Positions 29,703 to 36,500 of a stretch of DNA of 64,000 nucleotides are shown in pieces (within the stretch, counting starts at the first letter, position 1; each line of letters opens with the position of its first letter). The notes beneath the pieces were generated by a model. That model did no database searches, was not told where the DNA came from, and worked only from the letters and a program-made list of their open reading frames with translations. The DNA is from Octopus vulgaris (Eukaryota), in NCBI GenBank assembly GCA_951406725.2, contig OX597832.1:62124001-62188000 (forward strand), read 5' to 3'. Position numbers and translations under genes: made by a program.

Positions 29703-30568
29703 TTATATTTCAGAAAAGAAAATGCTAAAATGCCGTTGTTCGTTCTGCACGTTCCTAGTTAAAAATATAGAGTATTGTAGCGAAGAAGAAAGTACATTGG
29801 CCTTCGTTTATCAGTGACTGATTCATCACTGACCTAGCATAACATAGTACACTCAATTGTGTACCATGTTAGACTTGTTATGAACTGCTCTGGGATCACA
29901 CGGGTCGGCGATAGGTTAAAGTTTCTTTCTTGGGCCGCAAAAGAAGCACGCTCCAGGAACCATCCTCAGCGCTCAGTTACTCGCACTGCATTGACTATCA
30001 CTCGTGTTCATATCAATGTGCTGCGCGTTTATGTATTTGTTATGAGGATTTATGTGGACGTAAAGCAAATACGATGTAGACTCCTAATCGTTATGATACA
30101 TTTTTGTTATATCTTTATGATTTACTGATCATATGTTATTAATTTTTATTCCAAATATGCTAAATAACATTCTAAATAGTATTTTCAACCCAATTTTTAC
30201 ATGCTATTACTAATAGTTTTATATGTACTTCGAGATCCAATTCCAAAACAGAATCATTAGAAGTGTCTAGAAACTGTTTGATGTTATTTGGGTAAGTTAC
30301 GGGTCAACTAGGGGCCTGGGGAACGAAATATATTTTCGCTATATATTCTGTTATTCATTTATCAATGATTCACTGAACATACTGTAGAGTTTTTTTTTAT
30401 TATTTAGAGCCTAGCACACGTGATAATCGAGGATAGACGTATTTAACAGAGCACTGCGCAGTGTTCTCGGTGGCGAGCGGTGTTCTCGGAAGTGTGCAGT
30501 GTTCTCGGAATACCGATAAAACCGAGCGTGTTACATACGATCTATTCCAGTGTGATTACATTAATTTA

Positions 30569-30838
30569 AGCGCGGAAGGTGTTTATAAGTCATTTAAGAA
30601 ACACACAAAAACCGTTAGATTCACTTCAACATTTCAATTTAATTTGCTGCCAAAATATTTTCGTCGCTTTGAGACCGCAACCTGTTCACTGACAAAATTC
30701 CGTGCTGCATTTTGTCAGTGAACAGGTCGCGGTCTCAAAGCGACGAAAATATTTTGGCAGCAAATTAAATTGAAATGTTGAAGTGAATCTAACGGTTTTT
30801 GTGTGTTTCTTAAATGACTTATAAACACCTTCCACGCT
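30569..30838. repeat. Near-perfect 130-bp-arm palindrome containing an HHR motif on each strand
   Basis: Arms 30569-30698 and 30709-30838, 10-nt loop, two mismatches seen. Confidence 0.95.
30712..30760 (+). ncRNA. Putative minimal type-I hammerhead ribozyme, G3:C8 variant
   Basis: Stem I ttgtca/tggcag; core gtgaaca+g; stem II gtcgc/gcgac; gaaa; palindromic atat; predicted UUU cleavage site. Confidence 0.65.
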
Positions 30839-31344
30839 GCAATAGTTTTCGTTCCAGCATACGATCTCAGATCAGATCACTTGCTATGCAAGTACATCTC
30901 CGTAATATATTAATTTTCTTTTCTATTTAATTCCTTTTGTTTCCTCCGATATAAAAAGAAAGAGAAACGGATATAGAAGATAGAAATAGGAGGGAAAACT
31001 ATTGGGCAATGTCATTATTCAGTGTGGGCCGAAATTCACACAAAATAAGTTCAATACTCTCCGTAATGTCTCTCCGTAACGATGAATTCACATGTACTTG
31101 TATATGACGAAGAAATGGATAATGATAATCTGTTCTAGTAAAAGTACACGGCCTGATATTTGGCGGGAGCGGGGACTAGTCTATTACATTGACCCCAGTG
31201 TGACAATGGTACTTAATTTATCGACCCCGAAAGGATGAAAGGCAAAGACGACTTGGGCGGAATTTGAACTCAGAACGTAGAGACGGACGAAATGCCGCTA
31301 AAGCATTTTGCGCGGTGTGCTAACGTTTCTGCTAGCTCGCCGCC

Positions 31345-34408: not shown

Positions 34409-34448
<40 letters not shown>

Positions 34449-34455
34449 TGTTATA

Positions 34456-35714
34456 TTGGGGGCAGCCATCGGTATTAGTATCGCTGGTGATGTGGCCAAC
34501 CTCTTCATGGTATGGTGGGACAGAAGGCTTAAAGAATGCCTACTGCAGAAATCCATACTCGTAAACATGTACTCTCGCTATGTTGATGATATCAATATAG
34601 TAGTAAAGGCACCCCCACAAGAGAGTACTGTTGATATAGTAATAGAAACTAATACTATGGAGAGCATCCAGCAAATAGCTAACTCCATCCACCAGAGTAT
34701 TAAGGTCACAATAGACTACCCCACTAAACACCCCAACCATAGACTACCAGTACTAGACACTGAACTCTGGCTAGAAATTGTGAAAAATAAAACCCAAATC
34801 CTTCATTCATACTATGCAAAACCTATGGCCTCAAAATACCTGATCCACTGGAACTCAGCCATTGCGGGCAATGCCAAATTCAATATTTTGATGGCAGACC
34901 TCGTCAGAATAATGAGAAATGTGTCACGCATGTGCGAGCCTACAGAATTAAAGAGACACATACAGTATTTCATTCACCGCATGCAGTTCTCAGGTTACAG
35001 CCATAAAGAAAGGATCAGAGTATACAAAGGAGCCATGAAGAAATTTGATAATATATTATGTAATGATAGGAATGGGATTTGCCCACTCTATAGGAACAAG
35101 TCATGGAACACTATAGAAAGGACAAAAAGAAAATAGGGAAGGCCAACTCTTGGTATGATAGCCATAAATACCAGAGTGTCATGTTCGTTGACACCACCCC
35201 TGGAGGTGAACTAGCGTACCGCTTTAGAAGGACCCTAGATAAACTTAAACTAAGAATTAAGGTTGTTGAAAAGCCAGGCAACCCTATCAGATCTATAATT
35301 GGTAGAAGCTATCCTTTTAGTAGAACTCTCTGTACGGATAACTATTGCACTGTATGTAGATTTAGCCCACAAACGAACTGTAAAGCCAGAAATGTGGTCT
35401 ATAGTATAAGATGCATAGAGGGACGATGCAGTAACAAGACAGTAACATACGTAGGGGAAACTGCAAGAAGCATTGGTGAGCGGGTGAATGAACATTGGAG
35501 ACAACTCAAGGAAGGTAAAAGCTCATCGATTCTGTACCAACACGCCGAACAAGAACACGGGGGATCAATCAATAACATAGAGATTAAGATATTGTCCACA
35601 CATAGAACAGATGCAACAATTAGACAAATTACAGAAGCTACACATATAATAGAAAATAAACCTAGCCTGAATAGAAAACTAGAATGGAGCAATAGCGCAC
35701 ACCACAACATATGA
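34456..35714 (+). pseudogene. PLE reverse transcriptase (34456-35136) + Cys-rich linker and GIY-YIG endonuclease (35103-35714), split by one frameshift
   Basis: GAAIG..AG.VANLFM, YSRYVDDI, LPVLD; CTDNYCTVC; NVVYSIRC...[16 protein letters not shown]; RQITEA..I....PSLN. Confidence 0.9.
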
Positions 35715-36221
35715 CAATAGTGGATCCTGCAAACATAATAAATACACAGGTAATTAAAGAAATAGAAATGAATATCTATATATATGTGTATGTGTATATA
35801 TATGTATATGTATATGTGTATATATGTCTGTATATATGTATATATATATATGTATATGTATATGTATGTATATATATGTATATGTATATTCTTTTTTTTT
35901 TTTTTTTCGATTAGATTTATTATTATTATTACTAATATTGTTGTTATACATACATACAAGCATATGTAATGATAATAATGGGCGGATGTAAACACATGAA
36001 CAAAATTAGAACAAAAGCAACAACAACAAAAACAAAATACAAATTACAAGAATGTATATAACCAGAAGATACAAATATTACAGGTATCCCCCCCACACAC
36101 ACACTAAATAAACATAGACGCACATAGAGATATAAGCATGCGCAAATGAAGACATACAATAGAAATACAAAATGGCTGACGGTTAGTAAGGAGAGACACA
36201 AGTAAGTGAGAAGAAAACAAA

Positions 36222-36266
36222 GGACCACTGATGCGGTCACAGGAGTGTGACGAAAGAACTTTGGCC
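36222..36266 (+). ncRNA. HHR motif in the Penelope pLTR (A9 mutated in this copy)
   Basis: ggacca-ctgatgc-g-gtcac/gtgac-gaaa-g-aa-c-tt-tggcc; the sister copy at ~45905-45953 (-) has canonical ctgaaga-g-gtcac. Confidence 0.65.
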
Positions 36267-36441
36267 GAAATAAGATTAAGATTAATGTAAAAAATAAATA
36301 TCACTGAAGCAAAATAACACCAAATATATAGTGCGTGTGTTTTTATTGGCTAAACTGGCAATATGACCATTCCGAAATATAACAATATCTGTTTCAACAC
36401 ACGACTTCACATAAAAAATCTTGCACAACAAATATTTAAAC

Positions 36442-36500
<59 letters not shown>

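Follow-up and report, generated by a model that had tools for sequence, protein, structure and literature searches.

The window analysed here, a 64,000-nucleotide stretch of Octopus vulgaris DNA, is microsatellite-rich and comes from a 2.8-Gb assembly. It contains a near-perfect hairpin with arms at positions 30569-30698 and 30709-30838 and a loop at 30699-30708; the 130-bp arms, the 10-nt loop and the two mismatches of the preliminary description were all recovered, the mismatches lying at 30728/30679 and 30834/30573. The 280-nt hairpin region has a predicted fold of -219 kcal/mol. The locus consists of two terminal-repeat (pLTR) stubs of a Penelope-like element (PLE) in opposite orientations (Table 1), and the hairpin loop is formed by the first 10-12 nt of the inverted one. 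A 19-nt short tandem repeat at 30458-30510, 60 nt to the left of the hairpin, is absent from the other copies of the stub family and probably belongs to another repeat.

Table 1. Features of the hairpin locus, in window positions
Feature	Position	Strand	Remark
Possible 8-nt AT-only target-site duplication, weak	30560..30567		Repeated at 30909-30916
Inverted PLE pLTR stub copy, without tail	30569..30710	-	Starts at the usual family 5' end; ends 5 nt before the first family 3' end
Mirror motif copy	30647..30695	-	One G-U wobble within stem II
Direct stub copy	30709..30906	+	Slight 5' truncation; extends to the second family 3' end
Minimal type I hammerhead-like motif	30712..30760	+	G3 (30718):C8 (30723); predicted cut after U17 at 30754
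Stem I 5' strand	30712-30717	+	Right arm
Core G3-U4-G5-A6-A7-C8-A9	30718-30724	+	Right arm
Extra G before stem II	30725	+	Right arm
Stem II, 5 bp	30726-30730/30740-30744	+	Right arm
GAAA	30745-30748	+	Right arm
ATAT, palindromic helix III strand	30749-30752	+	Right arm
U16.1-U17	30753-30754	+	Right arm
First 31 codons of the parent PLE ORF	30814..30906	+	Frame runs on into the RT ORF in tandem copy L183
One-sided 63-nt tail	30844..30906	+	Between both family 3' ends

The right arm resembles a minimal type I hammerhead, with helices I and II, a short palindromic helix III, U4, G5, A6 and A9, the G10.1-C11.1 pair, GAAA, U16.1 and H17 all present. Its parts lie where the preliminary description had placed them, including U17, with one amendment: stem I of the family is 7 bp long (TTTGTCA/TG(A/G)CAAA), and the window has a private 3-nt duplication. 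This duplication is found in both window arms and in 0 of 136 other copies, so both arms arose in one event. The motif had also been read on both DNA strands, and the minus-strand copy was indeed found. The family does not match the literal core consensus CUGANGA (or its U3/A8 form) and has a Watson-Crick pair at 3-8, which is G-C here and C-G in sister families. The architecture is ordinary, and one core pair is unusual. Rfam gives no hammerhead match in the window, neither at the gathering score nor at E<=10. The 57-nt window motif folds as a single strand no better than shuffles (z=-1.35), and the MFE of the 207-nt right copy lacks the hammerhead stems; in two parent copies, stems I and II form with p of 0.67-1.0.

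The arms belong to a dispersed repeat family. A 19-letter pattern covering stem I and the core has 6,609 exact matches in the genome and 0 in the reversed control, so the motif is not a product of chance. The family unit is about 210 nt long, with a single clustered 5' end and two 3' ends, which correspond to window positions 30843 and 30906; among 123 copies, 60 reach the second 3' end and 58 terminate close to the first, the other 5 being partial. Contigs from public runs under four organism labels show, among the matches listed, the same ends and loose ends at both 3' ends, and the loose-end consensus has the same core with no variant at 3 or 8 among these matches. Opposite orientations occur within 300 nt in 18 of 30 loci and a single orientation only in 12, and arm lengths and junctions vary from locus to locus. 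Fifteen copies (L016-L030) have a common inverted junction and common flanks; this is a fold-back insertion amplified within a larger repeat, so that copy counts do not equal counts of independent insertions. By hand count among 100 of the 6,609 matches, nine opposite-strand motif pairs lie within 100 nt and no same-strand pair lies within 1 kb, and a non-LTR retrozyme, which would consist of tandem short hammerhead monomers, was rejected on the latter count. Fixed terminal inverted repeats at both ends, as in a MITE, are lacking.

Copies with a longer upstream part (442 matches) led to an ORF with RT and GIY-YIG. The motif lies about 1,000 nt past the stop codon of this ORF in L171, L172, L183 and L185, and L183 has two direct motif copies, 4,261 nt apart, on either side of the ORF. 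Beyond the tail, the reading frame runs on into the parent ORF, whose ATG corresponds to window position 30814, indicating that the stub is composed of the pLTR and the ORF start. The single ORF encodes a PLE-type RT, recognized by the motifs DKS, DVVSLYP and YVDD and by its weak similarity to a second PLE (L082), followed by a C-terminal GIY-YIG domain above the Pfam cutoff with internal cysteines, as in endonuclease-bearing PLEs; Pfam detects GIY-YIG only. The linker contains a CX3CX2C motif, and the protein, matched to the available description by Craig et al., would be of the Neptune or Nematis type. The hammerhead is located in the pLTR, as in other PLEs, and upstream of the ATG, which rules out coding constraint as the cause of its core conservation.

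The other PLE (L082:5550-7841, minus strand) has a 764-aa ORF with a GIY-YIG domain, and its 3' repeat may harbour a U3:A8 hammerhead-like sequence, for which the register of the cut site is uncertain. At L172:6905-6922 and L149:3224-3241, a branch-point-like, pyrimidine-rich sequence with AG ends exactly at the common stub 5' end and could be a splice acceptor or an initiator. Splicing at this site is less likely, as no joint was found in the contigs and the copies have no common sequence ahead of the shared GAG.

Two other leads were discarded. A trio with 3.4-kb spacing on contig C2 is a segmental duplication and not a PLE tandem, and an older motif-bearing repeat of about 2 kb is not the parent but a Helitron-like element that captured a stub. 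Its TC start, terminal hairpin and CTAG are features which we take to be Helitron-like. This old non-autonomous family with the captured inverted stub is found in L086, L087, L095 and L102 (about 600-2700, element orientation) and has 2,457 first-look candidates. In a subset of the family, the stub is itself interrupted by a small inverted-repeat element containing CCCTAA repeats.

With the stem I and stem II flanks fixed, G3:C8 accounts for 6,609 of the 7,244 pattern matches, and C3:G8 is absent, also from the 20 in which both positions are changed; G3 and C8 are fixed in the family, as the preliminary description had proposed to check. The remaining matches comprise 205 with a changed position 3, 410 with G3 and a changed position 8, and the 20 double changes (reversed controls 0). 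If the two positions changed independently, 12.7 doubles would be expected (odds ratio 1.6, p=0.06), and since three of the 20 look unrelated to the family, a count of 17 gives an odds ratio of 1.3 (p=0.25). Independent variation of the two positions had been named as a finding that would speak against selection, and the copies do vary nearly independently; we attribute this to decay after insertion and regard that test as wrongly aimed. The covariation lies between families. In an old-loop subfamily, 76 of 100 matches listed (of 287) are G3:C8 and none is C3:G8, and no intermediate old subfamily (C3:C8, G3:G8 or C3:G8) was found among these 100. The unpaired state G3:G8 accounts for 35 of 100 matches listed of the 410 and for about 2% of the family, roughly five times the mirror change of G3 to C. 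It is present in both repeats of L177 and in the ORF-bearing L159, so unpaired sources may have moved.

A canonical-core pattern with the same stem II base yields 5,300 matches (control 10). These have C3:G8 together with the extra G of the present family and a homologous stem II, and they fall into at least four families among 30 loci. The ORF of a young sister family is 54.7% identical over 815 aa and has a hammerhead at the equivalent place. The sister L193 differs from the family core at 3 and 8 only, sharing U4, G5, A6, A7, A9, the extra G, the stem II 5' strand, UU and the stem I 3' strand. In a hand-picked set of 14 sequences that are related to one another, 8 have C-G at 3-8 and 6 have G-C, two-sided changes occur in 7 of 14 pairs, including stems I, II and III, and pairing reaches 89% against 25-52% in slid controls; given this choice of sequences, shuffle figures for the set are not to be taken as probabilities. 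Bulges prevent an alignment of the outer pairs of stem I between families, and the outermost is unpaired in 9 of the 14. Between old and young subfamilies, represented by 9 old Helitron-carried copies, all descended from one captured copy, and 8 young copies (recovery succeeded for 17 of the 22 tried), the majority letter differs in 0 of 39 core and stem columns and in 16 of 63 loop and UTR columns (p=0.0004).

Judged from these alignments, the swap is a natural double change relative to the C3:G8 sister families. All 56 PLE representatives in Fig. S3 of Cervera and de la Pena (2014, PMC4209133) have C3 or U3, from which we infer that G3:C8 is the derived state. The earlier argument, that a double change with all stems intact points to selection on the fold, is borne out by the C3:G8 sisters, the covarying stems and a core and stems that stayed fixed from old to young copies, and the G3:C8 hammerhead has likely been kept by such selection.

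Sister elements also occur near the hairpin. A 5'-truncated young sister PLE copy lies at window 34441-36443 (plus strand, 97-98% identical to the L173 ORF), and its pLTR hammerhead at 36228-36255 has C3:G8 but C at 9. The A9C state is found in 73 of 100 matches listed (of 5,300) and marks the youngest sister family, which has many identical ORFs. Two unrelated minimal hammerheads (L074:411-455, plus strand, C3:G8; L179:8839-8885, plus strand, U3:A8) bring the 3-8 pairings in this genome to at least three.

Catalytic activity of the G3:C8 motif is plausible, and the motif is likely a weak self-cutter. The 3-8 pair is among the established contacts of the active conformation; the change G8C by itself slows cleavage about 100,000-fold, and C3G rescues it only partially (PMC8495972). 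Metazoan PLE hammerheads are described as cutting poorly in vitro even with canonical cores (PMC4209133), and the helix III dimer duplex is marginal here, with a predicted -0.2 kcal/mol. The genomic copies show no excess of starts at the predicted cut site. Exactly there begin 40 copies, of which about 16 are explained by inverted homology of stem I. In a hand count of 100 of 148 matches, the first 30 confirmed by script, copies without this homology start at the cut in 11 of 91 cases against 15 expected from our own rough chance-match model, and with the homology joints kept the figure is 20 of 100 (p=0.2). Neighbouring positions are equally frequent as starts, for which reason we rejected the idea that the copies are cDNAs of cleaved templates. 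Most insertions start upstream of the ribozyme, about 55 nt before the predicted cut.

Taking these results together, we lean towards reading the hairpin as one insertion of two head-to-head PLE terminal-repeat stubs, in which the inner motif would be a PLE minimal type I hammerhead with the C3-G8 of its sisters replaced by G3-C8, likely selected for its fold; weak cutting after U17 is predicted, either in a dimer or when the PLE protein assists. We do not regard the hairpin as part of the ribozyme system; it is a by-product of PLE insertion. pLTRs from partial tandems, an inverted 5' copy and a one-sided tail are all present, and the latter two are a described PLE footprint (Craig et al.). 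That the hairpin is itself the functional unit, as a MITE-like fold-back element or a small-RNA precursor, is very improbable and already largely refuted. The near-perfect 130-bp stem would suit such a unit, as would a sub-threshold Rfam match to MIR6140 (93.6 bits against a gathering score of 140), which we dismissed as a generic long-hairpin match; the sequence, however, is that of a PLE pLTR, arm lengths and junctions differ among loci, 12 of 30 loci have a single orientation, and the tail is one-sided. Selection on the hairpin itself is not evident.

Two further explanations concern the motif. The swap could have drifted neutrally to fixation in one founder element once constraint was lost and then been inherited by all copies. 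It is a single evolutionary event, the 6,609 copies are alike by descent, and positions 3 and 8 vary nearly independently among them, as drift would have it; we nevertheless hold this to be improbable, as the core differs from L193 solely at two complementary positions and remained unchanged with its stems while loop and UTR changed. A stronger competitor, though still rather unlikely in our view, is that the motif descends from a hammerhead but persists for a structural role, in protein binding, translation control of the downstream ATG or RNA stability, and no longer cuts at a useful rate. The lack of excess starts at the cut site, the stub starts some 55 nt upstream of it, the excess of G3:G8 copies and the A9C state of the youngest sister family would all fit, and insertion of the Anolis Poseidon element PAc in vitro is reported to be unaffected by hammerhead mutants (Frangieh et al. 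2024, PMC11167929). Against it stands the place of the 3-8 pair in the active conformation, and a double change that keeps this pair and leaves G12, A13, A14 and UH untouched would be expected under selection on catalysis.

For the insertion itself, we propose a route in which transcription would start about 20 nt upstream of stem I and the PLE protein would nick AT-rich DNA. Reverse transcription may then be primed at either internal site near the ORF start (30843 or 30906), and uncut RNA copied back to its 5' end would give a stub of 150 or 210 nt. A second priming or a template switch on the same RNA would add the inverted copy. Cleavage, where it occurs, may be assisted by dimerization or by the protein. 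At the window locus, read-through RNA would form a long duplex in which the ribozyme is not folded, so that the locus is most likely inert. Some copies retain the AG that precedes the common 5' end but not the upstream extension; in 13 of 17 such copies, a G stands in place of the parental C (p=2e-7, with an assumed 18% background), which we interpret as a transcription start carrying an additional G from the cap. The mechanism of a cap-derived extra G comes from work on LINEs.

A bolder interpretation, which we offer as a tentative possibility, is that a naturally evolved, active G3:C8 hammerhead was overlooked by CUGANGA/UUGANAA descriptors and Rfam, in a PLE clade whose lineages retain pairing at 3-8 but have lowered their cleavage, by G3:C8 in this family and by A9C in the youngest sister, leaving capped, uncut RNA to act as the template. 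If this is true, the stubs of 150 and 210 nt, in their thousands, would directly record, as cDNA, the transcription start with its cap-derived extra G and two internal priming sites. A natural G3:C8 would complete the covariation evidence for a tertiary pair known from the crystal structure and rescue mutants, and standard hammerhead searches do miss this family of more than 6,600 copies. The one genome also offers a matched natural series (C3:G8:A9, C3:G8:C9 and G3:C8:A9), which bears on the question of whether hammerhead cleavage is required by PLEs in the first place.

The literature already describes hammerheads, inverted stubs and tails of PLEs as well as covariation at 3-8, and this is not a new kind of system. 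In the accessible parts of the literature, which included PMC4209133, PMC11167929, PMC3088659, PMC3884650, PMC8495972, PMC6155905, PMC2377424, PMC6765202, bioRxiv 10.64898/2026.07.22.740005 and the Craig et al. preprint, G3:C8 was found in engineered form only; Lunse et al. (RNA Biol), on PLE hammerhead variants, or supplements could contain a natural one. The closest relatives are the PLE minimal type I hammerheads (PMC4209133), which share the pLTR position, type I topology, an extra nucleotide between 9 and 10.1, G10.1-C11.1, a short palindromic helix III, the UH cut triplet and thousands of solo and opposite-strand copies. They have C3:G8 or U3:A8 where this family has G3:C8, and the extra nucleotide is H in their consensus, whereas it is G here as in the sisters.

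PAc (PMC11167929) is similar in its AT-rich targets, a hammerhead adjoining the ORF start and two internal reverse-transcription start sites that delimit the tail. The first 3' end lies about 117 nt from stem II here, like the +111-118 site of PAc. Its hammerhead is described as cutting only with protein, uncut RNA being the insertion substrate, and our stubs fit this scheme of short cDNAs from uncut RNA. Engineered C3G/G8C partly rescues PAc cleavage, whereas the swap is natural and family-wide here. The two elements also differ in the ATG (60 nt past the cut site here, at stem II in PAc), in the tail (63 nt against 30-40) and in the linker zinc finger found here, which would be of the Neptune/Nematis type.

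A natural covariation of the 3-8 tertiary pair is likewise known from the U3-A8 hammerheads (Perreault et al. 2011, PMC3088659), including those of Schistosoma Cercyon PLEs. U3-A8 involves two transitions and keeps a purine at 8, whereas G3:C8 involves two transversions and places a pyrimidine at the general-acid position.
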